Assembly (NCBI GenBank): GCA_021851895.1
Contig: JAJZQJ010000002.1
Location: forward strand, 5,046-69,045
Length of the DNA stretch: 64,000 nucleotides
Source: a bacterium
GTDB taxonomy: Bacteria; Patescibacteriota; Minisyncoccia; Phycocordibacterales; UBA6899
Direction: 5' to 3'
A program made the position numbers and the translations under genes. Shown one piece after another: positions 13,430 to 30,257 of the stretch (the stretch's first letter is position 1; each line of letters begins with the position of its first letter). The notes under the pieces were generated by a model that worked only from the letters and a program-made list of their open reading frames with translations, had not been told where the DNA came from and searched no databases.

Positions 13430-14878
13430 ATGGACAGGAACCGGTTTCTCGCCGATCCAAGGGGTGCCATGCTTGCACTTTTCGGTGCAAGCGAAGCGAA
13501 TATCGTCGCCGTCGTGCGCGATGCGCTTTCGGGCGCCGATGATGGTGAGTTGTTCGTCGAGTGCACTTTTACCCGCGGTATCTCCTTCGAAGGAGGGAAG
13601 GTCGAGTCGCTTTCATACACAGAGAGTGGCGGAATCGGCCTGCGCCGTGTTGTCAAAGAAGCGCAGTATTACGCGTCGGGGAACGAGTTTTCTCTGAGTG
13701 CGGTGCGCGACTTCGGTGCACGACTGCGTGCAGCTTCTGGCGACGGGGAATTCATCGAAGATATCCCTGCTGTGCAAACAAAGCAGCACTATGATGCGGT
13801 GGATGTCTTTGCTCATTCAGTCGAAGAGATCATCGAGCGACTCCGTGCGCTCGACCGTGAGGCGCGTGCATTCACTTTCGAGAAATGCCCGTCGATCACT
13901 GTCGAGGATACAGAGCTCAGCATCGTGTCACAGATGAAGTGCGTGCTCATCGTTCGACCTGACGGATTCGTCGCAAGTGATATTCGTCCGATGTTGCGTT
14001 TCTCCGCTTCTGTGCGTTGCGCCGATGGCGAGAACACTGAGTGGGGAACAGTGCGGCTTGCGGGCCGTCGTTCCTTCGATGACCTGCTGACCAAGGATGT
14101 GCTCTCGCGTACCGCGAGAGAAGCTGCCGAGTTGGCGTATGACCTCATTTTCGCGAAGCCCTGTCCGTCAGGCAGCATGCCTGTTGTGATCGGTAACGGT
14201 TGGGGTGGAGTGCTCGTGCACGAAGCCATCGGGCATGCGCTTGAAGGCGATGCGATCCGAGAAAAGGATTCCGTTTTCGTCGGCAAGCTCGGTACGCAAG
14301 TGGCGAGCCCGATCGTGACCATCGTCGACGATGGCACGCTCTATGGTCTGCGTGGGTCACTCACCTTCGACGACGAAGGCACACCGACTGAGCGTTCGGT
14401 GCTCATCGAGAATGGTATGCTCAAAGCGTTCATGAACGATCGCCTGAGCGCGCGAGTGCTTGGGCTTCCGCAGACGGGGAGCGCGCGGCGTGAGTCGTAT
14501 CGCTTTCCTCCGATCGTGCGCATGCGCAATACGTTCGTCGAGGCTGGCAACGATGACCCCAAGAGCATCATCGCGGATACGGCGTACGGTCTCTATATCA
14601 AAGATTTCTCTGGAGGGCAGGTGGATTCCCGAACAGGGAAGTTTACCTTCACCGCAGACATCGGTTACGTCATCGAAAACGGTGCTCTCGCGCACGCAGT
14701 GCGCGGAGTCACCCTCATCGGTGATTGCAGAGAAGCACTTCTCTATATCGATCGCGTGGGCAATGACCTTGACCACGGGAGCGGTAATTGTGGGAAGTCT
14801 GGTCAATCCGTTCCGGTGTGTGTGGGGCAGCCCACAGTGCGCTTGAACGGTGGTGTCACTGTCGGTGGAACGGTCTGA
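13430..14878 (+). CDS. tldD: TldD metalloprotease
   Basis: 482 aa. HEXXXH motif in VLVHEAIGHALEGD and a conserved TldD C-terminal region. GAGGAGG RBS. Confidence 0.85.
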   Translation: MDRNRFLADPRGAMLALFGASEANIVAVVRDALSGADDGELFVECTFTRGISFEGGKVESLSYTESGGIGLRRVVKEAQYYASGNEFSLSAVRDFGARLRAASGDGEFIEDIPAVQTKQHYDAVDVFAHSVEEIIERLRALDREARAFTFEKCPSITVEDTELSIVSQMKCVLIVRPDGFVASDIRPMLRFSASVRCADGENTEWGTVRLAGRRSFDDLLTKDVLSRTAREAAELAYDLIFAKPCPSGSMPVVIGNGWGGVLVHEAIGHALEGDAIREKDSVFVGKLGTQVASPIVTIVDDGTLYGLRGSLTFDDEGTPTERSVLIENGMLKAFMNDRLSARVLGLPQTGSARRESYRFPPIVRMRNTFVEAGNDDPKSIIADTAYGLYIKDFSGGQVDSRTGKFTFTADIGYVIENGALAHAVRGVTLIGDCREALLYIDRVGNDLDHGSGNCGKSGQSVPVCVGQPTVRLNGGVTVGGTV

Positions 14879-14888
14879 GGAGGATGAG

Positions 14889-16220
14889 ATGGACAAGATG
14901 AACATGATCGCGACCGCGCAAGCTCTCCTCGATGCAGCCAAGCGAGAGGGGGCGAGTGATGCACGTTGCGTCGTCGCCAGTACCCGCAATGAGCGGCTGA
15001 CGATACGCGAGAGCAAGGTCAGTGGATATTCTCCGAAGACAAGCTACAGTCTCGTGCTCACCGTTTTCTGTGGTGATCGGCGTGCGGTCGTCAAAGGCGT
15101 GTCCTCGGATGCGAAGGCGATCGAGACGCTCGCGCGCGAAGGCGTTGCGCTTGCGCGCGTAAGTGGTGCGCATGAGTTCGATGGTGTGCCGGGGCCGGAA
15201 TATTGGCCGTGCACCTCCGAGGAGTTCGATGAATTGCAGGAAGGACTTTCCTGCGTCGACCGCGGACCCATTCCGGATTTCCACGTGCTCAAAGGGTACG
15301 CAGAGGAATTGCACGATCTTTCCCTCGCGAATGAGGGAGTCGTGCGCGTGGAAGTCAGTGTCATTTACCTGAAAAGTGCGCAAGTATTCGCGACGACGGC
15401 GGGCTTCACCGCTTTCGAAGAGGGCTCCACGTGGAGCGTCTTCGCTGAGGTAGTCGGAGACGATAACGGTGAGATCATCGTTGGCGTCGACGGCTCGCGT
15501 GCCTGCACGAGAGCAGCACTTCGCCCATTCAAAGCTGTCGCAGCAAGAGCGTATCACAACATGTGCGAGCGCAGAGGCGCGGTGCGTCCGAAGTCGGACA
15601 CTATCCACGTCATCCTGCGTTCTGATGTTGCAGAGAGAGCCATCGATACGATGATCGATGCACTGGATGCCGATGCGGCATTCCGCAAGAAGACGTATCT
15701 CCTGGGGTCGATCGGCGAACGCTGCATGAGTGAAGCGCTGACGATCACGGATTTCCCGCGCATCAAGTACTCTCCGTTCGCGGGACTCTTCGATAATGAC
15801 GGCGTTGCCACGAAGGATCGTGTGCTTGTCGATCGCGGTGTTCCGACGGGATGGATCGGTGGCTATGAGGAGTGTCGCAGGCTCGGTATCGAACCGACTG
15901 GTAACTCCTCAGGCTGCTCTCAAGTGTTCGTGAATCCTGGCTCGATGAATCTCGATGAGCTCTGCGGAAAGTTTCCCCGCGTGCTCGTCGTGACTGATTT
16001 CTGCGGCAGAGGTTTCGACCCGGAGACTGGAGAGGTTTCTGTGGGTGTCGAAGGATATATTATCGACAAAGGGAAGCGCGAGGTTGTCCATGAGGCGATC
16101 ATCGCCGGCACCTTGCAGGAGATGCTGAAGCAGTGCATCCCCGCGAACGATGTCGATACCGAAGGGCCGATTCACGTCCCCTCACTCTATGTGGGGGAGA
16201 TGCGGCTCTCGGGGGTTTAA
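14889..16220 (+). CDS. pmbA: PmbA/TldE family metalloprotease partner of TldD
   Basis: About 443 aa, PmbA-like throughout. GAGGAGG RBS 5 nt before ATG 14889. The track start 14850 overlaps the tldD end. Confidence 0.8.
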   Translation: MDKMNMIATAQALLDAAKREGASDARCVVASTRNERLTIRESKVSGYSPKTSYSLVLTVFCGDRRAVVKGVSSDAKAIETLAREGVALARVSGAHEFDGVPGPEYWPCTSEEFDELQEGLSCVDRGPIPDFHVLKGYAEELHDLSLANEGVVRVEVSVIYLKSAQVFATTAGFTAFEEGSTWSVFAEVVGDDNGEIIVGVDGSRACTRAALRPFKAVAARAYHNMCERRGAVRPKSDTIHVILRSDVAERAIDTMIDALDADAAFRKKTYLLGSIGERCMSEALTITDFPRIKYSPFAGLFDNDGVATKDRVLVDRGVPTGWIGGYEECRRLGIEPTGNSSGCSQVFVNPGSMNLDELCGKFPRVLVVTDFCGRGFDPETGEVSVGVEGYIIDKGKREVVHEAIIAGTLQEMLKQCIPANDVDTEGPIHVPSLYVGEMRLSGV

Positions 16221-16282
16221 TTGCAAAGCTCGCTACGGCGAGCTTTTTCTATGGCACTCAGATATGGTATACTTTGTATAGT

Positions 16283-16594
16283 ATGCCACAAGTAAGAAAA
16301 GAAAAACGCACGTACGCAGATCGTAGGGAATACCTTAAGCGTGCAGTTTCTGAACGTAGGAGAAAACTGAAGCTCATGCTGATAGAGTATAAGGGTGGAA
16401 AATGTGCCCGTTGTGGATATTTCTCATGCCCTGCGGTTTTTGATTTACATCATCTCGACGAGTCAAAGAAGGATTTTGGTTTTGGGGTAGGGGGTATTAC
16501 TCGATCATGGGATAGACTAAGGACAGAGGCTGACAAATGCATTCTTCTCTGTGCAAATTGTCATAGGGAATTACATGCAGAAAATGCAAGATGA
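16283..16594 (+). CDS. HNH endonuclease (small, free-standing)
   Basis: 103 aa with CARCGY...DLHHLD...N...CANCHRELH (a zinc-finger HNH motif). The ATG at 16283 lies 9 nt downstream of TGGTATACT. The track's upstream extension overlaps pmbA. Confidence 0.75.
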   Translation: MPQVRKEKRTYADRREYLKRAVSERRRKLKLMLIEYKGGKCARCGYFSCPAVFDLHHLDESKKDFGFGVGGITRSWDRLRTEADKCILLCANCHRELHAENAR

Positions 16595-16624
16595 AATAGA
16601 TAAAATTAGGCATTTTATACTACT

Positions 16625-16652
16625 TGCAAACGGCAAACAATTTTGCTATTAT
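16625..16652 (+). promoter_or_regulatory. promoter for the tRNA gene (TTGCAA - 16/17 nt - TGcTATTAT)
   Basis: -35 TTGCAA at 16625-16630 and an extended -10 TGCTATTAT at 16644-16652. Confidence 0.5.
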
Positions 16653-16706: not shown

Positions 16707-17036
16707 TCCGGTGTAGCTCAGCGGTAGAGCAGTACGCTGTGGCGTTAAACGCAGCCCATTTCAGTAATGAAATGGTGAACAACGAGGTGAATTGCTGGAA
16801 ACCCTAACGAGAAAGACGAGGGCGATCAGCAGCCAAGCTTTGCGAGGAATCGCACTGAAGGTTCAGAGACTATCCGAAAGGAGTACTGAATATGCAAATA
16901 TTTGGGAAGCGCCTCGCACCCCACTCTTATAAAGCCGCAAGGCTTAACGAAGAAGGGTGATGATATAGTCCTCCCACTACGAAAGTAGTGAACATGAGTA
17001 ACGTATTGGTCGCAGGTTCGAATCCTGCCGCCGGAG
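16707..17036 (+). tRNA. tRNA-Asn(GUU) split by a group I intron; exon 1 16707-16740, exon 2 16999-17036
   Basis: Acceptor stem TCCGGTG/CGCCGGA (one G-U pair); D arm GCTC-AGCGGTA-GAGC; anticodon stem GTACG/CGTAT. The spliced anticodon loop is CTGT|TAA, giving anticodon GTT. T arm GCAGG-TTCGAAT-CCTGC, discriminator G73. Confidence 0.7.
16741..16998 (+). ncRNA. group I self-splicing intron (IC3-like, no ORF) inserted between anticodon positions 35/36
   Basis: Conserved R element GTTCAGAGACTA (16861-16872) and S element GATATAGTCC (16961-16970) form P7. P-like AATTGCTGGAAA and Q-like GATCAGCAGCC are present. P1: exon GCUGU pairs with IGS GCAGC, with a terminal U.G. P10: intron CGUUA pairs with 3' exon UAACG. 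The intron ends in G. Confidence 0.7.
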
Positions 17037-17037
17037 C
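17019..17037 (+). repeat. att-like core, copy 1 (inside the tRNA 3' end, from the T-loop to the discriminator)
   Basis: CGAATCCTGCCGCCGGAGC, identical to 17229-17247. Confidence 0.6.
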
Positions 17038-17049
17038 AGAAAACATTAA

Positions 17050-17082
17050 TCCATGAAGCGAAGCTTCATGGATTTTTGTTTT
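17050..17082 (+). terminator. intrinsic terminator after the tRNA
   Basis: TCCATGAAGC-GA-AGCTTCATGGA followed by TTTTTGTTTT. Confidence 0.6.
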
Positions 17083-17228
17083 CCTCCGCCGCAGGATTCG
17101 AAGGGCGGAGGCCGCGAAGCCGGCCGCTGAGGTTCCGACCGAAGCGGTCGACGCCGAGCCCTGGCCCTACCTGCACCCCCTATTTCTCAAGCCGAAGGCG
17201 CTAGAGAAAAACGGAGGTGACAGAGGGG

Positions 17229-17247
17229 CGAATCCTGCCGCCGGAGC
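17229..17247 (+). repeat. att-like core, copy 2 (direct repeat of the tRNA 3' end, 210 bp downstream)
   Basis: 19/19 identity with 17019-17037. The flanks differ, so this is not a full tRNA copy. Confidence 0.6.
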
Positions 17248-17252
17248 CAATC

Positions 17253-17656: not shown

Positions 17657-18118
17657 ATGTCATTTCCACTTCTCGACAGCATCGGTTTATTTCTCATGCT
17701 CTCAGGTTTCATCATCGGGCTCGGTGCAGTGACGGTCATCGACATCCATGGCTTTCTTGGTCGCACATCCTCATATTGGACTGAGGCGACCACGCGAACG
17801 CATAAAGTTACGAAGCCCATGATATGGGCCGGCATCTTTCTCTCTATCGTCGGTGGCGTCATATTCTATCGCAATCAGCCGTTCGCGGGGATTCCTGCGG
17901 CGCATGCGCTCATCGTCGTCGCGCTCCTCTTTAATGGATATTTCCTGTCCTGCAAAGTGAGTCCATTTCTCTTAGCTCGTGAGAGCGAAGGGAAGTCGGG
18001 GGAATTACTCCCGAGTGCATGGCAGCATAAGATCATGGTGAGCCTCATCGTGTCTGACATCGGCTGGTGGGGAGGACTCGTTCTCCTCGTTGTGTACCTC
18101 ACGAGTCGTTTATCATAA
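17657..18118 (+). CDS. hypothetical membrane protein (4 TM)
   Basis: 153 aa with four hydrophobic helices. No motif recognized. Confidence 0.4.
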   Translation: MSFPLLDSIGLFLMLSGFIIGLGAVTVIDIHGFLGRTSSYWTEATTRTHKVTKPMIWAGIFLSIVGGVIFYRNQPFAGIPAAHALIVVALLFNGYFLSCKVSPFLLARESEGKSGELLPSAWQHKIMVSLIVSDIGWWGGLVLLVVYLTSRLS

Positions 18119-18212
18119 ATGGGTGCCAGCGCGTAGGCACAAGTGCTTCGTGTATTGCGCTCCTCTTGTCCGTCGCTCTTTCTGTTCCGCTGCGGGAGTA
18201 TTTATGTGTAAT

Positions 18213-18242
18213 GAAAAACCGGGCGCAAATTGCGCGCCCGGA
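18213..18242 (-). terminator. intrinsic terminator for the GC-rich membrane-protein gene
   Basis: CCGGGCGC-AAATT-GCGCGCCCGG preceded by A5 (a T-run on the minus strand). Confidence 0.65.
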
Positions 18243-18257
18243 GTTTATTCTAATGTG

Positions 18258-20135
18258 CTATTTCTTCTGCTCACGGAGCAGCTGGAGCATCTTCTGCTTC
18301 TCGGCGTCCGTGAGGTTTTCCATCTGACTCGTCGCTTCACGAGCGTCCTTGATGACCGCGTCGGCCTCCGTGGAGACTTTGTGCTGGGCATCGAAGGACT
18401 CTTGGACCTTCGTCTTCGCGAGGGTGAGACCCTGGCACTTGATCGAGTTCAGTGCGATGACCGACTCGTCGTTCTCGAGGAACGATACGGTCACGATGTC
18501 GCCGACGTGGAGCACAGGCGCGACGCGCACGGCTTCATCGGTTCCGCGGGTGGCGAACAGGCGATCGTTCACGCCCTCAAGCGTGAAGTAGAAGGTCTTG
18601 TTCCCGCCGATGACGGTGTCGCCGGTGCGCGTGATGCGCACGGGACCGAGGGTCTTCTTCGCGAGCGCCTTGCCACTCGCCGCGACGGCGTTGCCGTCGC
18701 TCGCGAGCTTCTGGCGGTACGACTCGAGCGCGGTCGTGAGATCACTCTCGATGACGAGCGTATTCACGTTCTCCATAGAGACGAGCGCGACCTTCTGGAA
18801 GAAGGACTGCTCGTTGCTCACGATAGGGATGACCCAGGTGGCCTTGCCGAAGATGTTGTATGGCGTCGGGTGCGTGGGGTGCCAGGTCGTCGCATTCGCG
18901 CCGAGCTGACTGCTCACGGCCTTCATCGCACCGTCTTCGGTCGTGCCACGCATCGGATAGTACTCGGCGCCAGCGATACCCTTGCGGGAGTCGATCAGCA
19001 TGAGTCCGATGAGGGAATCATCCTTCGCATTACTGCTCGTGATGCCGACGCTCCAGTAGAGCTTGTCGCCGAGCTTCACGAGCCACAGGTCGCCCGCAGG
19101 CTTCACGCGGTCATGGTCGTCCCAATTGATGAAACCATGGACGAGGTTGCCCCAGTCGACGATCTGTTCCTTCGCTTGCGCCATGGGGCGGACGCGATCG
19201 ATCCACGAGGGAATCGTGCCGTCCTGCTTGTACTCGCAAGAACCGGTTTCGGGATCAGCGATGATGACGCCGACGGTCTGTTCGCCCCAGAAGCCGATGG
19301 TGGGAGTCATGACGCCGTACGTGTAGTACGGATGCCAGTTCTCGTCCACCTCGAAGGTGACGTCACTTCGGTTCGCCCAGGGAATGTCCTTGTAGACCTT
19401 GCGGTCCAGGTTGTCCCCGAAGACCGCGTTCGGTGTGTACCGAATGGCGAACTTCTTGCCGAGGGCATCCTCGGTGACGAGGGTCGCCTCACGGTTCGGG
19501 TCCTGCGCCGACACCCTGATGTAGCCGGGGATGATGTTGTCGTTGAGACTCGCGAAGTCCGTTGCGTAGTCGAGGGGGAAGATCCACCAGAGTTCGCCGC
19601 GGACCTCTTGGACGGCTCCGTGTTCGAAATCGACATCGAACAGCGACCCGAGGGATTTCCCGTCGGCATTCTGTCCGAGCGCTTTCTTCGCGATGGTGTG
19701 CGCCGTTGCCGCGGAGACCAAGCGGATGTGCTTGGTGTCGGCGAGGGGCACGTTTTCGTTGAAGCGCTGCTTCATCGAGACGTTCCCGATCACGTTGCGG
19801 TACGCTTCCGCATTGAACATCGGACTTGTGCCGATGGCCATGCCGAAGAGGCCGACGAGGATGAGGACGGGGACGGCAATCCCCGCGTGGGGATGGAAGT
19901 CGAAGTATTCGTCTTTTTCGAAGCTGAAGACGAGGCCGAGCACCGCGCCGGTGAGGACGAGGAGCCAGGACTCCGCGAAGCGGAACCCGACCGTGGGGAG
20001 GGCGAAGTACCCGCCGCAGAGGACGAGCAGGAAGGAGAGGCTGCCAGCGGTGATGTACCGCCACGGCGTCTTGATCTTCGCGAGGCCGATGGTGACGATC
20101 GCTGCGATCGCGGCCAGGATGGCGAGGGTGAGCAT
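18258..20135 (-). CDS. large membrane protein: N-terminal TM helices + about 520-aa extracytoplasmic domain (strongly GC-rich gene)
   Basis: 625 aa with hydrophobic N-terminal helices, then a soluble domain with balanced composition and a charged coiled-coil tail. The opposite-strand 695-aa ORF is R/D/G-rich, typical of an antisense artefact. Confidence 0.55.
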   Translation of the reverse strand: MLTLAILAAIAAIVTIGLAKIKTPWRYITAGSLSFLLVLCGGYFALPTVGFRFAESWLLVLTGAVLGLVFSFEKDEYFDFHPHAGIAVPVLILVGLFGMAIGTSPMFNAEAYRNVIGNVSMKQRFNENVPLADTKHIRLVSAATAHTIAKKALGQNADGKSLGSLFDVDFEHGAVQEVRGELWWIFPLDYATDFASLNDNIIPGYIRVSAQDPNREATLVTEDALGKKFAIRYTPNAVFGDNLDRKVYKDIPWANRSDVTFEVDENWHPYYTYGVMTPTIGFWGEQTVGVIIADPETGSCEYKQDGTIPSWIDRVRPMAQAKEQIVDWGNLVHGFINWDDHDRVKPAGDLWLVKLGDKLYWSVGITSSNAKDDSLIGLMLIDSRKGIAGAEYYPMRGTTEDGAMKAVSSQLGANATTWHPTHPTPYNIFGKATWVIPIVSNEQSFFQKVALVSMENVNTLVIESDLTTALESYRQKLASDGNAVAASGKALAKKTLGPVRITRTGDTVIGGNKTFYFTLEGVNDRLFATRGTDEAVRVAPVLHVGDIVTVSFLENDESVIALNSIKCQGLTLAKTKVQESFDAQHKVSTEADAVIKDAREATSQMENLTDAEKQKMLQLLREQKK

Positions 20136-20380
20136 GTATGCTCCTGTGTTGTGCCGGATATCGATCCGGTGTGTTGAAGGGAAAGAGCTTCGGCTGTCCG
20201 AAACTGGGAGATATTATACAATATTTTTATAGATTTGTAAATAGTATCGATGTGAGGGTTTTTCTCGCTTAAAATATTCCCCGGAACTTGCGAAAAGACA
20301 TCCTGATCTGACACGGAAGGGTCCTATCGGAGTTTTCGCATGTCCTGTGCGGAAAACTGAGAAATTTAGAGCTGAATTTA

Positions 20381-20413
20381 TTCACAATACTATATAAAAT
20401 GATATTATTGTGA
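20381..20413 (+). promoter_or_regulatory. inverted repeat TTCACAATA-N15-TATTGTGAA overlapping the radC promoter/start
   Basis: 9-bp perfect arms at 20381-20389 and 20405-20413. The right arm ends 2 nt before ATG 20416, and the AT-rich spacer is -10-like. Confidence 0.5.
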
Positions 20414-20415
20414 AC

Positions 20416-21093
20416 ATGAAACTAAAGGAATTGCATCGTGTCGAGCTTCCACGAGAGAAGTTGGTGAAATATGGCCCCAAGCGTCTCCAATCTGAGGAGT
20501 TGTTTGCAATAATTCTTGGCTCTGGTATTAAAGGGGTCAATGTTCTTACGCTTGCACGTACTGTACTCAAGCACATAGAGAAGAACAAAAATGAGACGAG
20601 CTTAGAAAGTCTCCTGAAGATTAAAGGGTTAGGGACGACTAAGGCGTTGCAGATTATTTCAATATTAGAAATATCTCGTAGGCTACAAGAAAAAGAGAAA
20701 GTAGAAATACTTTCCGCAAAAGATGTTTGGCAGCAGTGCGCAGATTTCCGTGGATCCAAGAAAGAGCACTTCGCCGCCTTCTATCTCGATACACAAAACC
20801 GCCTCATTGAAAGGCAGATCATTTCCGTTGGTACGCTCGATTCTTCTCTCGTCCATCCCCGTGAAGTCTTCGAGCCAGCACTCCGACTTTCTGCTGCATC
20901 GGTCATCGTCGCACATAATCATCCATCTGGTGATCTTGTGCCTTCGGGCGAAGACTTAAGGTTAACGAAACGCCTTAAAGGGGCGGGGGAGTTAATAGGC
21001 ATTAACGTCCTGGATCACATTATCTTGTCTGGCTCAGAACACGGAAGCATAGCTGAGTCAATTGACGATGTACTTAGTGAGAGTATGCTGTAG
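20416..21093 (+). CDS. radC: RadC-like JAB/MPN domain protein (UPF0758)
   Basis: N-terminal HhH-like region plus a JAMM motif (SVIVAHNHPSGDLVPSGED). Confidence 0.8.
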   Translation: MKLKELHRVELPREKLVKYGPKRLQSEELFAIILGSGIKGVNVLTLARTVLKHIEKNKNETSLESLLKIKGLGTTKALQIISILEISRRLQEKEKVEILSAKDVWQQCADFRGSKKEHFAAFYLDTQNRLIERQIISVGTLDSSLVHPREVFEPALRLSAASVIVAHNHPSGDLVPSGEDLRLTKRLKGAGELIGINVLDHIILSGSEHGSIAESIDDVLSESML

Positions 21094-21095
21094 TA

Positions 21096-21686
21096 ATGAA
21101 GCATGGCTGCGCTAAATTAGAGGAAGTCGCGGAAATCATTACAGGTTACTCCTTCCGAAAGAGCATAGAGCCTGATCCCAATGGTCAGATTTTTGTGGTG
21201 CAGGCAAAAGATATCGTAAATGGTGAAATAATTCAGTCTACCGAAAAGCTCACACGCATTCTTGAGGAGCCAAACCATCCAGCATATCTTCAGCGTGATG
21301 ATCTCTTATTGCTATCAAAAGTCTACCCTGGAGCGCAGTTTCGTACGACAATATATCAAGGTTTATCAGGGAAGGTTTTAGCAAGTTCTTCGATTCATGT
21401 GATCCGACTCAAGAATGATTCGGTGCTCCCAGAATACTTATTCATGCTCTTTTCTTCTGGTTTTACGCAGAAGTGGTTGCAAGAAAATTCAAGCGGTGTG
21501 AATACTCCGACGATGCCGCGCGCCACTCTTGGCACACTCACTATCCCAATCATTAGCATTGAGCAACAAAAAGCATATATTTCGCTGTCAAAAGAAATGA
21601 AAAACATGCAGCGTTTGCTCCAAGAGAAAGCTGACCTTATTGCTATCGTACAAGAACAGACACTTGTAAGCTTGATCACCTCGTAA
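21096..21686 (+). CDS. hsdS: type I R-M specificity subunit, half-size (single target-recognition domain)
   Basis: 196 aa. N-terminal KLEEVAEIITG, a TRD, then a conserved coiled-coil region (IPIISIEQQKAYISL...). The start overlaps the radC stop (TAATG). Confidence 0.7.
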   Translation: MKHGCAKLEEVAEIITGYSFRKSIEPDPNGQIFVVQAKDIVNGEIIQSTEKLTRILEEPNHPAYLQRDDLLLLSKVYPGAQFRTTIYQGLSGKVLASSSIHVIRLKNDSVLPEYLFMLFSSGFTQKWLQENSSGVNTPTMPRATLGTLTIPIISIEQQKAYISLSKEMKNMQRLLQEKADLIAIVQEQTLVSLITS

Positions 21687-21706
21687 AGATATAAAACAAA
21701 TTACGT

Positions 21707-22546
21707 ATGGCACAAACAATTTTTGAACAAATCAAGAAGGTAAATGAGTTCGGCGGAGAATATTGGCAGGCGCGTGAGCTCGCAAAGGTTCTTGAATATG
21801 CTGACTTTGGGAATTTTGAAAATGTCATTAAAAAGGCAATGGACGCCTGTGAGGCAAGTGGGCAGGAGGTTGCGGACCATTTCGGTGCTCTCACCGAGAT
21901 GGTCGAAATTGGGTCAGGAGCAAAGCGAGAAATGTCAAGTTATGCACTTTCACGCTATGCCTGTTATCTCATAATCCAGGGCGCAGATACGACGAAGATT
22001 ATTATCGCGAAAGCGCATACATATTTTGCCATACAGACAAGAAGGCAAGAAGTAGCCGACCTCCTTGTCGAAGACAATAAGCGTGTCTTCCTGCGTGAGG
22101 AGATGAAAAAGCATAATAAGAATCTGGTCAGTGCGGCAAAGGACGCAGGTGTGACCAATTATGCGAATTTCCAGGATGCAGGATATATGGGACTTTACGG
22201 TGGTATGCGCCAAAAAGACATTCTCGCGCGCAAGCGTCTCTCCGTGAAAGAGGGCATCCTCGATCACATGGGAAGCGAGGAGCTCGCTGCGAATCTTTTC
22301 CGCGCCACACAAACAGAGGCGAAATTACGACGAGACAACATTAGGGGCCAAATTAAGGCAAATCAAACGCACTATGATGTTGGAGGTAGAGTGCGTGCAA
22401 CCATTAAAGAATTAGGAGGAACGATGCCAGAGAAGTTGCCAAATCCAGGTCCGATAAAGGATTCCGTTAAGCGCATTAAGAGCTCAGCGAAGGCCAAGAG
22501 CATTGTTGAGGGGAAAGTAGTTGCGAGGAAAAAGAAAAAAGCGTAA
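21707..22546 (+). CDS. dinD: DNA-damage-inducible protein D (DinD)-like
   Basis: 279 aa. The segments YWQARELAKVLEY.DF.NF..V...A..ACEASGQ...DHF and SRYACYLIIQ..D..K...A..YFAIQTRRQE match the DinD family as recalled from memory. Confidence 0.55.
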   Translation: MAQTIFEQIKKVNEFGGEYWQARELAKVLEYADFGNFENVIKKAMDACEASGQEVADHFGALTEMVEIGSGAKREMSSYALSRYACYLIIQGADTTKIIIAKAHTYFAIQTRRQEVADLLVEDNKRVFLREEMKKHNKNLVSAAKDAGVTNYANFQDAGYMGLYGGMRQKDILARKRLSVKEGILDHMGSEELAANLFRATQTEAKLRRDNIRGQIKANQTHYDVGGRVRATIKELGGTMPEKLPNPGPIKDSVKRIKSSAKAKSIVEGKVVARKKKKA

Positions 22547-22568
22547 TGCTTAAGAAAAAATAAACATC

Positions 22569-24083
22569 ATGTCTACAAAAACATTCAATCAAGAGGAGCT
22601 CAATAAAGTACTTTGGGCAGCGGCTGATTCCTCTCGAGGTAAGGTTGACGCAAGTATCTATAAGGATTATGTGCTCACGATGCTCTTCTTCAAGTACATG
22701 AGTGATCTGCATAAGAAGACTTATGCAGAGTACCTTAAGCGTTTCGACGGAGATATTGATCGCGTTGAGGAGAAAATGCGTCTCGACCGCTTTGTGCTCC
22801 CCGAGACAGCAACTTTTGAAGCAGTATATGCACAGATAGAGAAGGACAACATCGGCGAAATCATCAATATCGCGCTTAAAGAGGTGGAGGCTGAGAACAG
22901 GGGGAAGCTTGATAAGGTCTTTGCCGTAGACTTCAATTCCGAAAACACCCTCGGTAAGCTCGATGAGCGTAATCGTATGCTGCGTAATTTGCTCAAAGAT
23001 TTCGCAAAGGTGGACTTCAGTGAGGCTGATGAAGACATTGTGGGAAATGCATACATGTATATGATTGAGCGCTTTGGCTCAGCGGCAGGGAAGAAAGCAG
23101 GAGAGTTCTTTACCCCCCGCTCTATCGCTTCGCTCGTCGCACGTCTTGCTGCACCAAAAGCAGGAGATCGTATCGCCGATATGGCCTGTGGGTCAGGCGG
23201 CCTCCTTTTGCTCGCAGGTGAGGAAGTCGAGAAGACTGGCTCAAAGAATTATGCTCTCTATGGTCAAGAGCTTACTGGTACTACCTACCAGCTCGCGCGT
23301 ATGAACATGTTCCTACATCAGAAGGATTCGGCACGCATTGAATGGGGCGATACGCTCAATAGTCCGCTCCTTGTGGAGAACGATCAGCTCATGCGCTTTG
23401 ACGTCTCTGTTGCAAATCCTCCCTTCTCGCTCAAGAAGTGGGGTGCAGAGAATGCAGAGAATGATAAGTACAATCGTTTCTGGCGCGGAATACCACCGAA
23501 GGACAAAGGAGACTATGCCTTCGTAACCCATATGGTTGAAACCACGAAGCCAAAGTCGGGTCGTGGTGTTATCGTCGTGCCCCATGGAGTGCTCTTCCGT
23601 GGTGGAGCGGAAGGGAGAATTCGTGAAGCATTGCTCAAGGAAAATATCATCGATGCAGTCATTGGGCTTCCTGCTGGGCTTTTCCAAACGACAGGTATCC
23701 CCGTCGCAATCCTTATATTCGATCGCTCTCGAGAAGTGGGGGGTGCGAACGAATCTCGCAAAGATGTGCTCTTCATTGAAGCCTCGAAAGAATTCAAGGC
23801 AGGCAAAGCGCAAAGTACCCTCACTGATGAGAATGCGGCAAAGATTATTGATACGTACAAGGGGAGAAAAGAAATCGAAAAGTTCTCTCGTAAAGTCTCG
23901 CTTAAAGAGATCGAGGAGGAAAATGACTTTAATCTAAATATCACTCGATATGTCGATACCTTTGAAGAGGAGGATGAAATTGATATTTCTGCAAATCTCA
24001 AAGAGTTATCTAAGGTAAACGCTGAATTGAAGGAGGTCGAGAAGAAGATGGAGGAGTATTTAAAGATGCTTAATATCGCATAA
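22569..24083 (+). CDS. hsdM: type I R-M N6-adenine DNA methyltransferase subunit
   Basis: 504 aa. N-terminal HsdM helical domain, AdoMet motif I (DMACGSGGLLL) and motif IV NPPF (VANPPFS). Confidence 0.9.
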   Translation: MSTKTFNQEELNKVLWAAADSSRGKVDASIYKDYVLTMLFFKYMSDLHKKTYAEYLKRFDGDIDRVEEKMRLDRFVLPETATFEAVYAQIEKDNIGEIINIALKEVEAENRGKLDKVFAVDFNSENTLGKLDERNRMLRNLLKDFAKVDFSEADEDIVGNAYMYMIERFGSAAGKKAGEFFTPRSIASLVARLAAPKAGDRIADMACGSGGLLLLAGEEVEKTGSKNYALYGQELTGTTYQLARMNMFLHQKDSARIEWGDTLNSPLLVENDQLMRFDVSVANPPFSLKKWGAENAENDKYNRFWRGIPPKDKGDYAFVTHMVETTKPKSGRGVIVVPHGVLFRGGAEGRIREALLKENIIDAVIGLPAGLFQTTGIPVAILIFDRSREVGGANESRKDVLFIEASKEFKAGKAQSTLTDENAAKIIDTYKGRKEIEKFSRKVSLKEIEEENDFNLNITRYVDTFEEEDEIDISANLKELSKVNAELKEVEKKMEEYLKMLNIA

Positions 24084-24086
24084 AAC

Positions 24087-25100
24087 ATGGCAAAGGTAAA
24101 ACAGGCAACAAAAACTTGGGAAGAGCTCGAGAAATTAAGACTCGAATTCGAACAGAGGCTCTTTCCGCAGGTTAAAGCAAAAATTGATGAAATAGAAGCC
24201 TATAGAGATACTCTTCTCGATGACAATGAAAAGAAGTCATTAAGCACGACTATTTCTGAGTTGTCGGATAAAATCACCGAACTAGAGGAGTCCTTCAAAG
24301 AAAAATTCAGTGACATAGAAACTTTGCATGAGAGGATTTTTCACGGGGATGAGGAGAATGATGCGTTGTCTGATCAGGTTGATGAGTTTGTAAATAAAGC
24401 AAAAGGAGAGCTTGCTGGCTTGAATACAAAACACGCTGATATTAATAGGTATCATGAAAAGGTATTTGGTGAGAAGGATGCTTCTGGAAAGTATTCAGGT
24501 GGGCTCGCGTCAGAGCTAGAAAAGTATGGAAAGAAGTATGAAGCCCTATTTGGCCAAATAGAAGGCTTATTGCCAGGTGCTACAAGTGCTGGTCTTGCTC
24601 AGGCATTTAGCGATAAGGTTGATGAATACAAGAAAGAGGCTTCAAAGTGGAAGTGGATTACTTTTGGCTCCTTGTGTATCGCAGTCGTTCTTAGTATCGT
24701 CTCATACTGGCTTGATCGTGGTCAGGTGCTCTCGTTTTCATTTGTCATGATCCGGCTTGCACAGAAATTGCCTTTTGTTTTGTTTGCAGTTTGGCTGGTT
24801 GTATATGCAAATAATCGACGTGCAGAAAATAAAAAACTCGAAGAGTCATATAAGCATAAAGAGGTAATCGCGAGATCTTTTGTGGGCTATAGGAAGCAAA
24901 TTGAGGATCTCGATCTCGACACTGAAGATAATAATTTACTTATTTCGCTCACGACAGGATTACTTGATGCCATCATGATCAATTCATCAGATTTCTTAAC
25001 AGCGACTGGCGAGAAGAGTCCGATTCATGAAATGCTTGATAAAGCTGCAGATACTGCGAGTGCCGCAGTATCTAGCCCTGTAATTTCTATAAAGAAATAA
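24087..25100 (+). CDS. coiled-coil / 2-TM protein of unknown function embedded between hsdM and hsdS (candidate membrane effector)
   Basis: 337 aa. About 190 aa of heptad-rich helical N-terminus, then two adjacent TM helices (WKWITFGSLCIAVVLSIVSYWL; LPFVLFAVWLVVYANN) and about 100 aa of C-terminus. ATG 3 nt after the hsdM stop and 3 nt before the hsdS start. Confidence 0.6.
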   Translation: MAKVKQATKTWEELEKLRLEFEQRLFPQVKAKIDEIEAYRDTLLDDNEKKSLSTTISELSDKITELEESFKEKFSDIETLHERIFHGDEENDALSDQVDEFVNKAKGELAGLNTKHADINRYHEKVFGEKDASGKYSGGLASELEKYGKKYEALFGQIEGLLPGATSAGLAQAFSDKVDEYKKEASKWKWITFGSLCIAVVLSIVSYWLDRGQVLSFSFVMIRLAQKLPFVLFAVWLVVYANNRRAENKKLEESYKHKEVIARSFVGYRKQIEDLDLDTEDNNLLISLTTGLLDAIMINSSDFLTATGEKSPIHEMLDKAADTASAAVSSPVISIKK

Positions 25101-25103
25101 TTC

Positions 25104-26246
25104 ATGGAACTAGCGAAACAAAAAATTCCGTCCACTTGGCAAAAACTTCGCCTCGGTGATTGTCTGACAATAAAGCATGGTAAATCACAAAAAGAAATTG
25201 AAGTAGTCGATGGTAAATATCCCATCCTTGCTTCAGGTGGAGTTATAGGGAGAACTAATACTCCACTATATAGTAAGCCATCAGTATTAATCGGTAGAAA
25301 AGGGACGATTGATAAGCCTAGATACATGGATACTCCTTTTTGGACGGTAGATACGCTATTTTACAGTCAGGTAAAGGACAACTCTGTACCCAAGTATTTG
25401 TTTTATGTATTCAATTTCATTGACTGGTATGAATACAATGAGGCTTCGGGAGTCCCAAGTCTTTCGTCGAGCACTATTTCCTCAATAGAAGTTCTACTTC
25501 CTCCTCTCCCTGAACAAAACCGCATCGTTTCGGTTCTTGAAACCTGGGATAAGGCAATTGAAAAACTTTCTCGAAAGATTGAAATTAAGAAGGAAATCAA
25601 GAGGGGATTGATGCGGGGCTTACTGACTGGCAAGCTCAGGGTAACAGGTCGCGGTGGGAGTTGGGATGTCTATAAAATCGGTGACATAATTGTTGAAAGT
25701 CGAATTCCTTCCAAGAGTTTTGATGTTACTAAAAGGATTAGTGTGCGACTAAATATGAATGGCGTAGAGAGTAGGGAAGTGCGAGGTACTGAGGCTGAGG
25801 GCTCGACCATGTTTTTCGTTAGGAGCGCTGGTCAGTTTGTTTATGGAAAGCAAAATTTATATAAGGGAGCGATGGGGATTATTCCAGAACAGCTTAATGG
25901 TTATGAGAGCACTCAAGATATCCCCTCTTTTGATTTCAGGGAAGGATTTGATTCTAAGTGGTTCTTGTATTTCATGGGCAGAGAAAGTTTTTATTCGCAA
26001 CTTGAAGATATTGCAACTGGTTCAGGGTCCAAGCGAATTCATCCACGAGATTTATTTAAAATTAAGATTCGGGTACCTAAATATGACGAACAGTTAGCAA
26101 TTGCATCTGTGCTATCGGTTGCCGATTCGGAAATCCGCATACTTACCCAAAAACAGCAGTGTCTAGAGAGGCAGAAAAAGTTTCTCCTTAATAATCTTGT
26201 CACTGGAAAAATTCGTACTCCAGAAAACCTACAATATGCTAAATAA
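25104..26246 (+). CDS. hsdS: type I R-M specificity subunit (two TRDs)
   Basis: 380 aa. Two TRDs separated and followed by conserved regions (LLPPLPEQNRIVSVLE...; VPKYDEQLAIASVL...). Confidence 0.85.
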   Translation: MELAKQKIPSTWQKLRLGDCLTIKHGKSQKEIEVVDGKYPILASGGVIGRTNTPLYSKPSVLIGRKGTIDKPRYMDTPFWTVDTLFYSQVKDNSVPKYLFYVFNFIDWYEYNEASGVPSLSSSTISSIEVLLPPLPEQNRIVSVLETWDKAIEKLSRKIEIKKEIKRGLMRGLLTGKLRVTGRGGSWDVYKIGDIIVESRIPSKSFDVTKRISVRLNMNGVESREVRGTEAEGSTMFFVRSAGQFVYGKQNLYKGAMGIIPEQLNGYESTQDIPSFDFREGFDSKWFLYFMGRESFYSQLEDIATGSGSKRIHPRDLFKIKIRVPKYDEQLAIASVLSVADSEIRILTQKQQCLERQKKFLLNNLVTGKIRTPENLQYAK

Positions 26247-29200
26247 AGTCCATTTTGATGAAGCGCGTCAGGTACAGTTGCCCGCAGTAGAGTTGCTCAT
26301 AAGCCTTGGTTATGAGTATATTTCGGTGAGCGAGGCGCTGCGTGAGCGTGGGGGAGATGAACGTAACGTAATACTGCGTGATATCGCGCGTGCGAAGTTA
26401 ATGGAAATTAATAGCTATGAGCTCGATGGTGAAAAGATGCAATTCACTCCTCGCGATGTGAATGAGGCTATTGATGAGCTCGAAAACCTTCCATTTGAGG
26501 GACTTCAGAAGACCGCACAAAACATTTACCGCATGATCATGCCGACGAGTGGCGGGAAGACTGTCGAGGTGCGTAAGGGAGACTCGAAAAACTTTCGTTT
26601 CATCGATTTTGCGGAACCCCATAATAATGCTTTTCATGTGACGGTAGAATATACCGTCGTTGGTAAAGAAGAGATCCGCCCGGATATCGTTTGTTTTGTG
26701 AATGGTTTTCCTATTGCGGTTATCGAAAGCAAGAAGCATACGGTATCGGTGGAAGAAGCACTAGAGCAGATGGTGCGCAATCAAGGCGTCGAATATGCTC
26801 CAAAACTATATACCTTTGCACAGATACTTGTGGGCTCAAATGGTACTGATTTCCGCTATGGTACAACCGGCACTGGCGAGAAATTTTATGCAGTCTGGAA
26901 AGAAAAGCCTAGAGAGAAAGGAGAGGCGGATCTTGAGCGACTTGATGCGCGCGTAAAGGAATTAATTGCTCAGCCGATTGCCGTAGGTGTGTATCAAGAA
27001 TTGCTCAATGACTTGAGCCGAGGCCAATCACATCATGAGCAACTTTGCGATCGCCCTATTACTGCGCAAGATCGCAGTATCGTCGCACTCTTTACGCCAG
27101 AGCGCTTACTTGATCTCACAAAGCACTTTGTGATTTTCGATGCAATGGAGAAGAAGATTGCACGCTATCAGCAGTATTTTGCTATTGAGAAGATGCGTCG
27201 CCGTGTGATGGAGAAGGAGGCCGCACCTGAGGGCGGCGAGCGTCGCCGTGGCGGTATCGTCTGGCATACACAAGGGTCTGGAAAGTCGCTGACGATGGTG
27301 CTCTTCGTGAAGGCGCTTATAGAGGATGAGCATATTAAGAATCCTCGTGTCATTATTGTTACCGACCGCAGAGATCTTGATAGGCAAATCAAGGGAACGT
27401 TTGAGAATTGTGGACTCAAGAAGGACGTCGTCCAGGCAAAGACGGGACAGCACCTGCTTGATCTTATTCAAGAGAAGAATCTTGGAGTCATCACCACTCT
27501 CGTGCAAAAGTTTGAGAGCGTCGCGAAGAAGCGTGAAGATTTTGTTGACCCCGATGAGAACATCTTTGTGCTCATCGATGAGGCGCATCGTACCCACGGC
27601 GGTATGGCGAGCCTTGAGATGTCCCGCACAATACCGAATGCTTGCTATATTGCCTTTACGGGTACGCCACTCATGCGCGAGGAGAAGGAGAGCTGGAGGC
27701 GTTTTGGGGCATATATTGACAAATATACCATTGATGACGCCGTGCTCGATGGTAATGTGCTCCCACTGATCTATGAGGGACGCTTTGTGCCGCTTGTGCA
27801 GAATGCAAAGAAGATTGATGAGCTTGTTGATCGTGTAAAAGAGCGTGCAATACACAAATACCAGTCCAATGGTGAAGAAGATAAACGCGAAGAGGAGTCG
27901 GTAAATCGCGAAGCGTTGGTCAATAATCCACAGCGCCTCCGTGAAATAGTCCATGATATTGAATCGCATTATAAGATGGAGCTGCAGGGGACAGGACTTA
28001 AGGCGCAAGTTGTTGCTCCCAGCAAATTTGCGGCAGTAAAAATGCAACAAATGTTTCTCGAGAGCGGGTTGGTGAAGTCTGCGGTCGTTGTCTCAGATGA
28101 GTCGGGGATTGTTCATGAGGATGACTACCGAAGGCAGGAAGTTGTCGATTTCTTGGATAAGATAAAAGATACTCATTCGAGTATTGAAGAATATGAGAAA
28201 GAAGTGATTCGCGACTTCAAGGATAATGCAGATGGTGTCGAAGTGCTTATCGTTGTCCATAAGCTCCTCACGGGTTTTGATGCCCCAAGAAATACCGTGC
28301 TTTACCTCGCAAAGAGTTTGAGGGACCATGACTTACTTCAAGCAATTGCTCGTGTGAACAGGCTTTGCGATAAGGGCAAGAAGCAGAAAACATCAGGGTA
28401 TATTATTGATTATTCCGAGAATGCACAACACCTCAAGAGTGCGATGCAGCTCTTTGGGAACTACGAGGAGGACGATGTGCACGGCACGCTTGTGGACGTG
28501 GGAGAGAAGATGCAGGAACTGGCACAAGCATATGCGGCCATACATGATATTTTTCGTGGCGTGCATGGGGCGAAGACGGTAGAACCGTTCATGGAGGTGC
28601 TCAAGGCAGAGGATACACGCGTGGAATTTAATGCCGCAGTAAATACATACACAAAGCTCTTCAGTGAATGTCTTGCGTTGAAGGATTTCAATGAGAACTT
28701 CAAAGATATTGATCTGTATAAGCGAGAGCTCAGAAAGTTCGTCGAATTAAGAAAGCTTTCGCGGTTCAGATACGGCGAGCGAACGGACTTTAATGAGTAC
28801 AAATTTGCGTTGATGCGTATCCTTGATCAGTATGTTGATACCGAAGGAGGCGTGGAGCGTCTTACTGAAAAGATTGATGTTCGCGATATTGCTCAGGTGC
28901 GTAAGGCTGTTGAAGAGATCGTAGATAGCAAGGAGAAGGCTGAGGCGATTGCGACACAGGTGAATAAGACTATTCACGACCGTGAGGCTGAGGATCCTGT
29001 CTACTATAAGTCACTCTCGGAACGAGTTGAGGAAATTATACGAGCGATGCGAGAGGGGAGAATGCAAGACCTCGTTGCCCTTGAAGGGCTCGAAGAATTG
29101 CTCATTGCCGCAAATGAGAAGAAGCAGGCCTCAGTACCAAGTCAGATTGAAGCTGAACATGGAGCAGATCTATTTTATCGAAATTTACTTCCACATTTTG

Positions 29201-29454
29201 AGCGTTTTCATCTTATCTCAGATCAAGAGGTGATGCTTTCATTGAGTGTCTTTAAGATTATTAAAGAATTTGCAATAGTCGATTTTGAGCATAACGTCGA
29301 TGTACAGCGCCGCATGCGTAGTGCGCTTGATGACTACTTGTATGATGGTTTCCCTTCCGAGTGGAATGTTTCGCTATCTTCGAGAGAAAGGGGAGACATA
29401 GTTGCCGCAATGGTTGAACTCGCAAAACACAATCATGAGCTCTTTAGTGCATAA
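26236..29454 (+). CDS. hsdR: type I R-M restriction subunit (helicase/endonuclease)
   Basis: About 1072 aa. N-terminal nuclease region, SF2 helicase motifs (GSGKSLTM Walker A; DEAH: LIDEAHRTHGG; motif VI QAIARVNR). The ATG at 26236 overlaps the hsdS stop. Confidence 0.9.
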   Translation: MLNKVHFDEARQVQLPAVELLISLGYEYISVSEALRERGGDERNVILRDIARAKLMEINSYELDGEKMQFTPRDVNEAIDELENLPFEGLQKTAQNIYRMIMPTSGGKTVEVRKGDSKNFRFIDFAEPHNNAFHVTVEYTVVGKEEIRPDIVCFVNGFPIAVIESKKHTVSVEEALEQMVRNQGVEYAPKLYTFAQILVGSNGTDFRYGTTGTGEKFYAVWKEKPREKGEADLERLDARVKELIAQPIAVGVYQELLNDLSRGQSHHEQLCDRPITAQDRSIVALFTPERLLDLTKHFVIFDAMEKKIARYQQYFAIEKMRRRVMEKEAAPEGGERRRGGIVWHTQGSGKSLTMVLFVKALIEDEHIKNPRVIIVTDRRDLDRQIKGTFENCGLKKDVVQAKTGQHLLDLIQEKNLGVITTLVQKFESVAKKREDFVDPDENIFVLIDEAHRTHGGMASLEMSRTIPNACYIAFTGTPLMREEKESWRRFGAYIDKYTIDDAVLDGNVLPLIYEGRFVPLVQNAKKIDELVDRVKERAIHKYQSNGEEDKREEESVNREALVNNPQRLREIVHDIESHYKMELQGTGLKAQVVAPSKFAAVKMQQMFLESGLVKSAVVVSDESGIVHEDDYRRQEVVDFLDKIKDTHSSIEEYEKEVIRDFKDNADGVEVLIVVHKLLTGFDAPRNTVLYLAKSLRDHDLLQAIARVNRLCDKGKKQKTSGYIIDYSENAQHLKSAMQLFGNYEEDDVHGTLVDVGEKMQELAQAYAAIHDIFRGVHGAKTVEPFMEVLKAEDTRVEFNAAVNTYTKLFSECLALKDFNENFKDIDLYKRELRKFVELRKLSRFRYGERTDFNEYKFALMRILDQYVDTEGGVERLTEKIDVRDIAQVRKAVEEIVDSKEKAEAIATQVNKTIHDREAEDPVYYKSLSERVEEIIRAMREGRMQDLVALEGLEELLIAANEKKQASVPSQIEAEHGADLFYRNLLPHFERFHLISDQEVMLSLSVFKIIKEFAIVDFEHNVDVQRRMRSALDDYLYDGFPSEWNVSLSSRERGDIVAAMVELAKHNHELFSA

Positions 29455-30169: not shown

Positions 30170-30171
30170 GT

Positions 30172-30196: not shown

Positions 30197-30257
30197 CTTG
30201 CAACTCATTTGCATCTCCATGGTATAATACCCATATTCTTGTCTCTTCTGCCCTGTT

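Follow-up and report, generated by a model that had tools for sequence, protein, structure and literature searches.

What kind of gene lies at positions 16707-17036 of this 64-kb stretch of metagenome DNA (the window), and how is it connected with the nuclease gene that lies just upstream of it? An earlier reading of the sequence (the original prediction) had described the region as a tRNA-Asn(GUU) gene interrupted by a group I intron. We conclude, with a probability of about 0.9, that it is a functional tRNA-Asn(GUU) gene split between U35 and U36 by a 258-nt self-splicing IA-like group I intron, and that this intron belongs to a family known from Patescibacteria. The sequence, structure, covariation, homology and genomic association behind this conclusion are observed here, and self-splicing at 35/36 is taken from the literature on other members of the family. 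The intron alone is one more example of a published and experimentally validated family and changes little. The new detail is that a putative homing-endonuclease gene adjoins the tRNA gene and is not inside the intron, a free-standing placement that is not in Nakagawa et al. (bioRxiv 10.1101/2025.07.03.662931, July 2025; mSystems, January 2026, PMC13011429). This upstream gene, which encodes a homologous HNH endonuclease, was missed by the original prediction.

The identity of the intron is supported by its match to the Rfam family RF00028 (Intron_gpI). A check against the Rfam group I model had been suggested with the original prediction, and when it was run the model matched positions 16736-16991 of the + strand with 74.5 bits (gathering cutoff 50, E = 4.6e-17). 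The match spans the full model, positions 1-253 of 253, and RF00028 is the sole Rfam family above cutoff in the window. The claim that the intron is 258 nt long and lacks an open reading frame (ORF) holds as well, the longest ORF within it being 46 aa with a TTG start. The R element GTTCAGAGACTA and the S element GATATAGTCC are both present, as claimed, and pair as P7. At the 5' splice site P1 ends in the expected U•G wobble, formed by U35 (16740) and G16751, and the intron terminates in a G (omega-G, G16998). A P10 of 5 bp with the 3' exon had also been proposed and is found in the window copy, where CGUUA in the P1 loop pairs with UAACG at the start of exon 2; P10 is 6 bp long if a G•U pair is included. 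The secondary structure was drawn by hand on the group I scheme, and GNRA tetraloops cap six of the hairpins. The unconstrained minimum free energy (MFE) fold has an energy of -79.8 kcal/mol (z = -3.86) and recovers ten helices, namely P2, P3, P4, P5, P6b, P7.1, P7.2, P8, P8a and P9. The two helices P7.1 and P7.2 are located between the 5' strand of P7 and the 3' strand of P3, which is the architectural hallmark of subgroup IA, and the stretch that contains them is scored by Rfam as a 35-nt insertion. On the basis of this architecture and of the published classification of its relatives by Nakagawa et al., the intron is described as IA-like. In blastn searches the intron core was closest to IA-type introns of Alteromonas, Enterococcus, Bacillus and Staphylococcus phages. 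The matches in the phage genomes covered only the catalytic core shared with phage introns, and the same locus was not found in them.

Is this structure supported by other introns? Genomes were scanned, one per species, for an S element with a generic tRNA 3' half behind it, and at least 120 loci were found (L numbers denote loci). Most of them are in metagenome-assembled genomes (MAGs) of Patescibacteria or the candidate phyla radiation (CPR), and some are in Gammaproteobacteria, Bacteroidales and others. To rebuild the split tRNAs, the two strands of the acceptor stem were paired and every splice combination compatible with the U/G rule was tried in ARAGORN. Among the matches listed, a tRNA-Asn(GTT) solution at 35/36 was common to 88 of the 100 reconstructible loci. 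Exon 1 is 34-35 nt and exon 2 is 38 nt long at these 88 loci, and the intron lengths are bimodal (197-353 nt at 58 loci and 519-630 nt at 30 loci). The other 12 reconstructible loci gave mainly tRNA-Asp(GTC), tRNA-Met(CAT), tRNA-Arg(TCT) and tRNA-Phe(GAA), and several calls were ambiguous. Met-CAT was found at L004, L034, L083 and L092, Arg-TCT at L069 and Phe-GAA at L076; L038, L047, L053, L060, L094 and L098 comprise the Asp-GTC and ambiguous calls. That group I introns in non-Asn tRNA genes are caught by the same scan pattern agrees with published surveys.

The window intron and 47 others, in all 48 distinct short tRNA-Asn introns, were aligned with MAFFT (alignment A1), and pairs were counted against the window structure. 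The window intron aligns with the others over its full length, 41 columns are invariant, and most of the loci belong to MAGs named Patescibacteria, Parcubacteria or Saccharibacteria. The paired cells amount to 77%, and sliding the 3' partners by 1-3 columns lowers this figure to 36-45%. The slid controls have covariation scores of 0.06-0.15, compared with 0.295 for the unshifted pairs. None of 500 shuffles matched the observed percent paired, the number of cells changed on both sides or the covariation score. Among the core helices P3 is 90% paired, P4 98-99%, P6 99% and P8 90%, and P7, which is invariant, 100%. Many compensatory changes occur in P3, P4, P5, P6 and P8, and P2 has some also; P7.1 is 66% paired with two covarying pairs. 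The CUGU/GCAG pairing of P1 and the omega-G are invariant in 48 of 48 introns. A second, structurally distinct intron class at tRNA-Asn 35/36 was also seen in the alignment (L008, L012, L026, L061, L080 and L102). This class has the core GGGATAAC...ACCGTGGGAAC...CGCCGTAGAGACTAGATAC and lacks both P7.1 and P7.2. The short introns of L165, L177 and L193 were not detected by RF00028 at its gathering threshold, and these probably belong to the second, divergent class at 35/36.

Which amino acid does the split tRNA serve? Default ARAGORN made no tRNA call across the 64-kb window. A tRNA-finder check on the spliced sequence had been suggested, and it was carried out with ARAGORN after the intron was removed in silico. 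The 72-nt product (73 by the ARAGORN count) was called tRNA-Asn(gtt). It forms a canonical cloverleaf with a 7-bp acceptor stem that includes one G•U pair, normal D and T arms and a discriminator G, and its anticodon loop is CUGUUAA, as first read from the sequence. The predicted ligated-exon junction is ...GCAGUACGCUGU joined to UAACGUAUUGG... (...CGCUGU joined to UAACG...), and the sequence across the spliced exons would contain CGCTGTTAACGT. When ARAGORN was run with its -i option on the unspliced sequence it called a tRNA-Thr(agt) with a 258-nt intron. The gene would then encode tRNA-Thr(AGU) and the intron would lie two bases further 5', at 33/34. This placement agrees formally with the U/G rule, because U33 precedes the 5' site and G16996 precedes the shifted 3' site. 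The family data speak against it. The P1 extension pair, formed by intron position +1 and the base 5' of GCAGC, covaries (GC 21, CG 9, AU 6, GU 2, UA 1, UG 1), which locates the U•G wobble, and with it the 5' splice site, after U35 rather than U33. In the P1 that this covariation supports, A16753 is the Watson-Crick partner of U33, and U35 is the wobble base. Asn(gtt) can be read at every locus of the family, whereas the alternative anticodon changes between loci (tgt, cgt, agt) or cannot be formed. A discriminator G73 is what is expected for tRNA-Asn and, to our knowledge, a Thr anticodon with A34 is not expected in bacteria. The Thr-AGT call of the intron mode was rejected on P1 covariation and family consistency. 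The same 2-nt mis-call has been described by Nakagawa et al. (PMC13011429), who refuted it by sequencing the spliced products of relatives. We consider the threonine assignment extremely improbable. The split between positions 35 and 36 of tRNA-Asn(GUU), which was part of the original prediction, is borne out both by the ARAGORN result on the spliced sequence and by the P1 covariation.

The original prediction regarded an intron in tRNA-Asn at 35/36 as unusual, and it treated tRNA group I introns as essentially a matter of tRNA-Leu, tRNA-fMet, tRNA-Arg and tRNA-Ile. Its structural reading is upheld by Rfam, ARAGORN and covariation, but the claim of unusualness is not, since Nakagawa et al. describe the same arrangement and at least 88 further examples were found in the genome scan. 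The list of host tRNAs is out of date. Williams (bioRxiv 10.1101/2020.01.27.920355) raised the number of intron-split tRNA types from 4 to 21, and according to Nakagawa et al. (PMC13011429) the 35/36 Asn type was first reported as 'Asn.4Ug' in Williams' tFind work. In 95 complete Patescibacteria genomes, Nakagawa et al. found 15 tRNA-Asn(GUU) and 3 tRNA-Asp(GUC) genes with group I introns at 35/36 (PMC13011429). They showed that a call of Thr(UGU) at 33/34 is a frequent error of ARAGORN and tFind with these tRNA-Asn genes. For two members of the family they demonstrated precise, GTP-dependent self-splicing in vitro, with sequenced ligated exons and an omega-G-to-C negative control. The same authors assigned 25 of 28 introns at 35/36 to subgroup IA; among bacterial tRNA introns as a whole, 81% are IC. 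Four of the long tRNA-Asn introns encode HNH (PF01844) endonucleases, and mobility was inferred to be limited since most of the introns are without endonuclease genes (PMC13011429).

The window intron resembles this family in its host gene and insertion site, in U(-1) and omega-G, and in an IA-type architecture with P7.1 and P7.2. It also shares the 2-nt Asn/Thr ambiguity, the failure of default tRNA finders to detect it and the occurrence of HNH genes in long relatives. The phylum is probably the same, as the syntenic relative L123 is a Candidatus Paceibacterota MAG, and NCBI places Candidatus Paceibacterota under the phylum Minisyncoccota. There are two differences. The window copy comes from an uncultured metagenome contig (ERZ27237050 k141_1151494) outside the published set of 95 complete genomes, and its HNH gene lies outside the intron, whereas the paper counts intron-encoded endonucleases only and does not use the term 'free-standing'. 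The classical bacterial tRNA introns are all IC3 and are found in tRNA-Leu(UAA) at 34/35, tRNA-fMet at 33/34, tRNA-Arg(CCU) at 36/37 and tRNA-Ile(CAU). Like these, the window intron is a group I intron of a self-splicing type in an anticodon loop, with P1 built from the anticodon stem-loop and a splice site after U. Unlike these, it occupies another tRNA and another site and is IA-like, with P7.1 and P7.2 between P7 and P3'.

What, then, is the gene upstream of the tRNA? In blastp searches the window HNH protein was 45-64% identical, with E values down to 5e-49, to ORFs located inside 519-630-nt tRNA-Asn introns. It keeps all the residues that are invariant in the family, namely the CxxC, HH and CxNCH motifs and the final H. 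In an alignment of 22 HNH sequences the conserved positions are C41/C44, H56-H57, C90/N92/C93/H94 and H98, and the window protein has every one of them. Pfam PF01844 matches all 22 aligned homologues at E <=1 (best 3.5e-6). A database entry identical to the window protein exists, and HXK37993.1 from a Candidatus Paceibacterota MAG falls into its 90% cluster. By its homology the window HNH is orthologous to the homing endonucleases that the long introns carry in their P1 loop. Upstream of its start codon there is an extended -10-like element, TGGTATACT, that may be a promoter for an HNH mRNA with a short leader or none. The sequence (T)GGTATACT or TATAAT is found about 7-12 nt before the ATG in several intron-borne copies (among them L068, L111, L062, L119 and L037) and in the free-standing L122. 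This common -10-like element suggests a compact cassette of promoter plus ORF.

The placement of the HNH family was examined in metagenome contigs, which were searched with the HNH alignment and were thus not selected for tRNA genes. The search gave more than 580 relatives, and the best 80 were analysed. Within this set 78 lie inside a tRNA-Asn(GUU) gene or at most about 200 nt away from one: 67 are inside the tRNA-Asn intron, 5 are free-standing beside an intron-containing tRNA-Asn and 6 are free-standing beside an intronless tRNA-Asn(gtt); the other 2 gave no clear context. In the sample of 88 tRNA-selected loci (among the matches listed), the HNH gene is inside the intron at 30 loci. Of the 58 short-intron loci, 8 have a free-standing copy at a distance of 18-177 nt from the tRNA, on either side of it and in both orientations, and at 50 of the 88 loci no HNH gene was found in the available flanks. 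In the long introns the HNH ORF starts 17-64 nt after the 5' splice site, except in two truncated copies. The conserved C-terminal residues TQLP of the intron-borne proteins are the translation of ACGCAGCTTCC, the guide sequence running into P2 (e.g. L068, L111 and L009). The ORF therefore lies in the P1 loop, reads through the 3' strand of P1 and overlaps the core sequence of the ribozyme. The TQLP tail is absent from the free-standing copies. Several of the intron-borne HNH genes are decaying: L005 and L088 contain internal stops, part of the interior is deleted in L037, and L090 is truncated at its N terminus. Such decay fits the usual gain and loss cycle of homing endonucleases.

These placements suggest three states of the HNH gene: free beside an intronless tRNA-Asn, free beside an ORF-less intron, of which the window is an example, and embedded in the P1 loop of the intron. 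We put this scheme forward tentatively and at somewhat less than even odds. The simplest reading of the family is that of homing endonucleases that are specific for tRNA-Asn and mobile independently of the intron. If that is so, the window would be a collaborative-homing arrangement of the kind known from phages. In phage collaborative homing a free-standing endonuclease is encoded next to an ORF-less intron, as with F-CphI at the cyanophage psbA gene and T4 mobE with I-TevIII (Hausner et al. 2014, PMC3984707). The window has this layout, as the HNH gene (16283-16594) lies outside the intron (16741-16998) and the ORFs of the intron are no longer than 46 aa. The layout is kept in the related loci L123, L124 and L125 and recurs in other lineages. 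As in the phage systems, homologous endonucleases are embedded in the same intron elsewhere, which is what the model in which the endonuclease invades the intron predicts. The window differs from the phage systems in that the host is a bacterial chromosomal tRNA gene and not a phage protein-coding gene, and its endonuclease is a predicted one. The relatives of the window HNH also occur beside intronless tRNA-Asn genes, unlike in the phage systems.

How might the locus work? It is proposed that the tRNA gene has a promoter of its own (~16624-16652), that transcription runs from there to the terminator (17048-17084), and that the intron folds into P1-P9 with P7.1 and P7.2. Exogenous guanosine would attack after U35, in the U•G wobble that P1 forms with the guide GCAGC. 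The terminal G16998 would then occupy the G-binding site in P7, and ligation of the exons would give the CUGUUAA anticodon loop. The CCA end is not encoded at the 3' end of exon 2 and would therefore be added post-transcriptionally. The HNH protein most likely acts in trans as a homing endonuclease specific for the tRNA-Asn gene. After it has cleaved a naive allele, gene conversion would transfer the HNH gene and the intron together by collaborative homing. In this proposal we infer the splicing of the window copy and the use of its promoter as well as the activity and the target of the endonuclease. The promoter candidate sits between the HNH stop codon and the start of the tRNA, and L123 and L125 carry a comparable TTGCAA...TATTCT.

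Several observations weigh against this account, both for the ribozyme and for the nuclease. P7.2 and P9 are weakly supported in the MAFFT alignment, where they are 41-53% paired, which probably reflects misalignment. The P10 of at least 5 bp is peculiar to the window copy and is not conserved in the family; P10 was rejected as a family feature since its length distribution across 58 members was the same as in shuffled controls. It is also possible that a second, intronless tRNA-Asn gene is present elsewhere in the genome, of which 64 kb was examined and in which the window has no other tRNA. The intron and its gene might then be a decaying relic that splices poorly while the cell relies on the intronless copy. 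Systems of introns and homing endonucleases are known to degenerate, as do several intron-borne HNH genes of the relatives with their stops and deletions, and the region 3' of the tRNA is rearranged and has a duplicated 3' end. Against a relic, the core helices and all the invariant core nucleotides are intact, and promoter-like and terminator-like signals flank the gene.

The close relatives of the window also bear on this point. L123 (GCA_035583355.1, a Candidatus Paceibacterota MAG) is syntenic with the window, and L124 and L125 are short related metagenome contigs. All three have the same order of an HNH gene, a promoter-like site and a tRNA-Asn with a group I intron (67-70 bits). They share about 79% DNA identity with the window over about 990 nt, and their exons are identical to those of the window despite the roughly 21% divergence of the surroundings. 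The differences in the intron preserve helices or replace them cleanly: L125 has a fully re-paired P2, another hairpin takes the place of P7.2, and L123 has lost P8a. Identical exons and helix-preserving changes point to purifying selection, and the pattern is what would be expected of a functional ribozyme. Nakagawa et al. (PMC13011429) have also found that a genome rarely has both an intron-containing and an intronless copy for the same anticodon. A relic is thus very unlikely, and a functional split tRNA-Asn(GUU) gene is preferred.

For the nuclease, the window HNH scores 14.8 bits against PF01844 where the cutoff is 21.4 (E = 0.034). The match is sub-threshold, so the HNH assignment rests on family homology and the motif. 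Six relatives adjoin intronless tRNA-Asn genes on either side at a distance of 35-105 nt (L127, L129, L176, L188, L192 and L200, confirmed with ARAGORN and Rfam). Their position implies either that the intron is not required for protection of the host gene or that the target is other than the intron insertion site. At L200 the HNH gene is between two tRNA-Asn genes (1873-1945 and 2355-2442), the second of which has an odd length of 88 nt. L019 and L127 were considered as a pair of occupied and empty sites and were rejected: their HNH cassettes are about 85% identical, but their tRNAs differ, so that they are not isogenic alleles.

The intronless neighbours, the free-standing copies in both orientations and the sub-threshold Pfam score would also suit an HNH gene that is unrelated to intron mobility, either a general selfish gene or a domesticated nuclease that tends to insert beside tRNA-Asn. 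It would then be difficult to see why 67 of the 80 best relatives are inside the P1 loop, with ORFs that run through the guide sequence (TQLP from ACGCAGCTTCC). In a neighbour-joining (NJ) tree, which has low resolution with a protein of about 100 aa, the copies of the two kinds, free and intron-borne, are intermingled, and at least 14 changes of state are needed. Free-standing HNH genes also accompany some introns of the second class at 35/36 (L080, L102). Such an association with two intron classes is what a nuclease would show that has the tRNA-Asn gene as its target and co-mobilises whichever intron is resident, in the framework of PMC3984707. We regard an unconnected nuclease as fairly unlikely, and favour the homing endonuclease specific for tRNA-Asn.

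The association of the HNH family with tRNA-Asn would qualify the inference of limited mobility made by Nakagawa et al. If the endonuclease is active and specific for tRNA-Asn, many tRNA introns described as ORF-less could be mobilised in trans, and this would contradict the published inference that horizontal transfer is limited for lack of endonuclease genes. The data suggest that the mobility of bacterial tRNA introns has perhaps been underestimated when only intron-encoded endonucleases are counted. The free-standing and intron-borne HNH genes form a natural series on which ideas about the way homing endonucleases join up with group I introns can be tested. There is also a practical side for annotation. 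The split gene of the window escapes default tRNA finders and is mis-called as tRNA-Thr by those that allow for introns, and such missed or mis-called genes affect estimates of MAG completeness that are based on tRNAs. The coordinates of the features of the locus are given in Table 1.

Table 1. Features of the split tRNA-Asn(GUU) locus and its surroundings, in window coordinates.
Feature	Position	Strand	Remarks
Extended -10-like element (putative)	16265-16273	+	TGGTATACT; 9 nt before the HNH start codon; read from sequence
Free-standing HNH endonuclease gene	16283-16594	+	103 aa; ends 113 nt before exon 1
Sigma-70-like promoter candidate for the tRNA gene	16624-16652	+	TTGCAA, 17 nt, TATTAT, with an upstream TG; consensus scan
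tRNA-Asn(GUU) exon 1	16707-16740	+	34 nt; in-silico splicing and ARAGORN; identical in L123, L124 and L125; acceptor 5' strand, D arm, anticodon stem 5' strand, loop bases C32 U33 G34 U35
Group I intron	16741-16998	+	258 nt; ORF-less; subgroup IA-like (P1-P9 with P7.1 and P7.2); omega-G at 16998
P1 hairpin	16736-16755	+	GCUGU/G (16736-16741, slash at the splice site) pairs with guide CGCAGC (16750-16755)
P10 5' strand, in the P1 loop	16743-16747	+	CGUUA; pairs with UAACG, first 5 nt of exon 2 (16999-17003)
P2	16756-63/16768-75	+	
P3	16783-89/16910-16	+	
P4	16793-98/16826-31	+	
P5	16802-05/16819-22	+	
P6	16832-33/16861-62	+	extension 16838-45/16850-60
P7	16866-72/16966-71	+	
P7.1	16873-75/16880-82	+	GAAA loop
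P7.2	16889-93/16898-902	+	GCAA loop
P8	16917-21/16955-59	+	P8a 16932-36/16941-45
P9	16975-80/16985-90	+	
tRNA-Asn(GUU) exon 2	16999-17036	+	38 nt; identical in L123; U36 A37 A38, anticodon stem 3' strand, variable loop, T arm, acceptor 3' strand, discriminator G73
Intrinsic terminator-like hairpin, then T-run	17048-17084	+	12-bp stem and 3-nt loop at 17048-74
Second direct copy of the tRNA 3' end	17229-17249	+	19 nt identical to 17019-17037, then CCA

About 190 nt separate the tRNA gene from the second copy of its 3' end downstream. The tRNA of L125 ends in ...GCCGGAGCCAAAG, a 93% match to this second copy over 29 nt. Since the L125 tRNA ends with the version that includes CCA, the window and L123 would carry an insertion or duplication of about 210 bp, and 17229-17249 is probably the ancestral tRNA 3' end displaced by it. 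The insertion or duplication is possibly a remnant of an attachment (att) site or a scar of break repair. At 17017-17102 there is an imperfect palindrome of about 86 nt, in which the 3' end of the tRNA and the terminator are joined by a copy of the T arm and acceptor in inverted orientation.

On the other side of the locus, a TldD/PmbA gene pair (window 13430-16220) lies between a histidine phosphatase gene and the HNH gene. The pair is absent from L123 (5008-6327), where the HNH gene directly follows the phosphatase gene, so that a two-gene indel adjoins the endonuclease. A search of ten large window proteins with NCBIfam gave no phylogenetic marker, and synteny between the window and the 120 genome-scan loci was limited to one DUF378 match. 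Further downstream, window positions 20410-30200 encode RadC, the S subunit of a type I restriction-modification (R-M) system, a Bro-N domain protein, HsdM and more large ORFs. The G+C content of this cluster is 0.40-0.47, compared with 0.60 in the neighbouring 18-20 kb segment, and it may be a mobile defence island. In the 60% G+C segment two ORFs of more than 600 aa, at 18090-20177 (+) and 18258-20135 (-), overlap almost completely. Pfam gave no match for either of them, and the source annotation calls the gene on the + strand.

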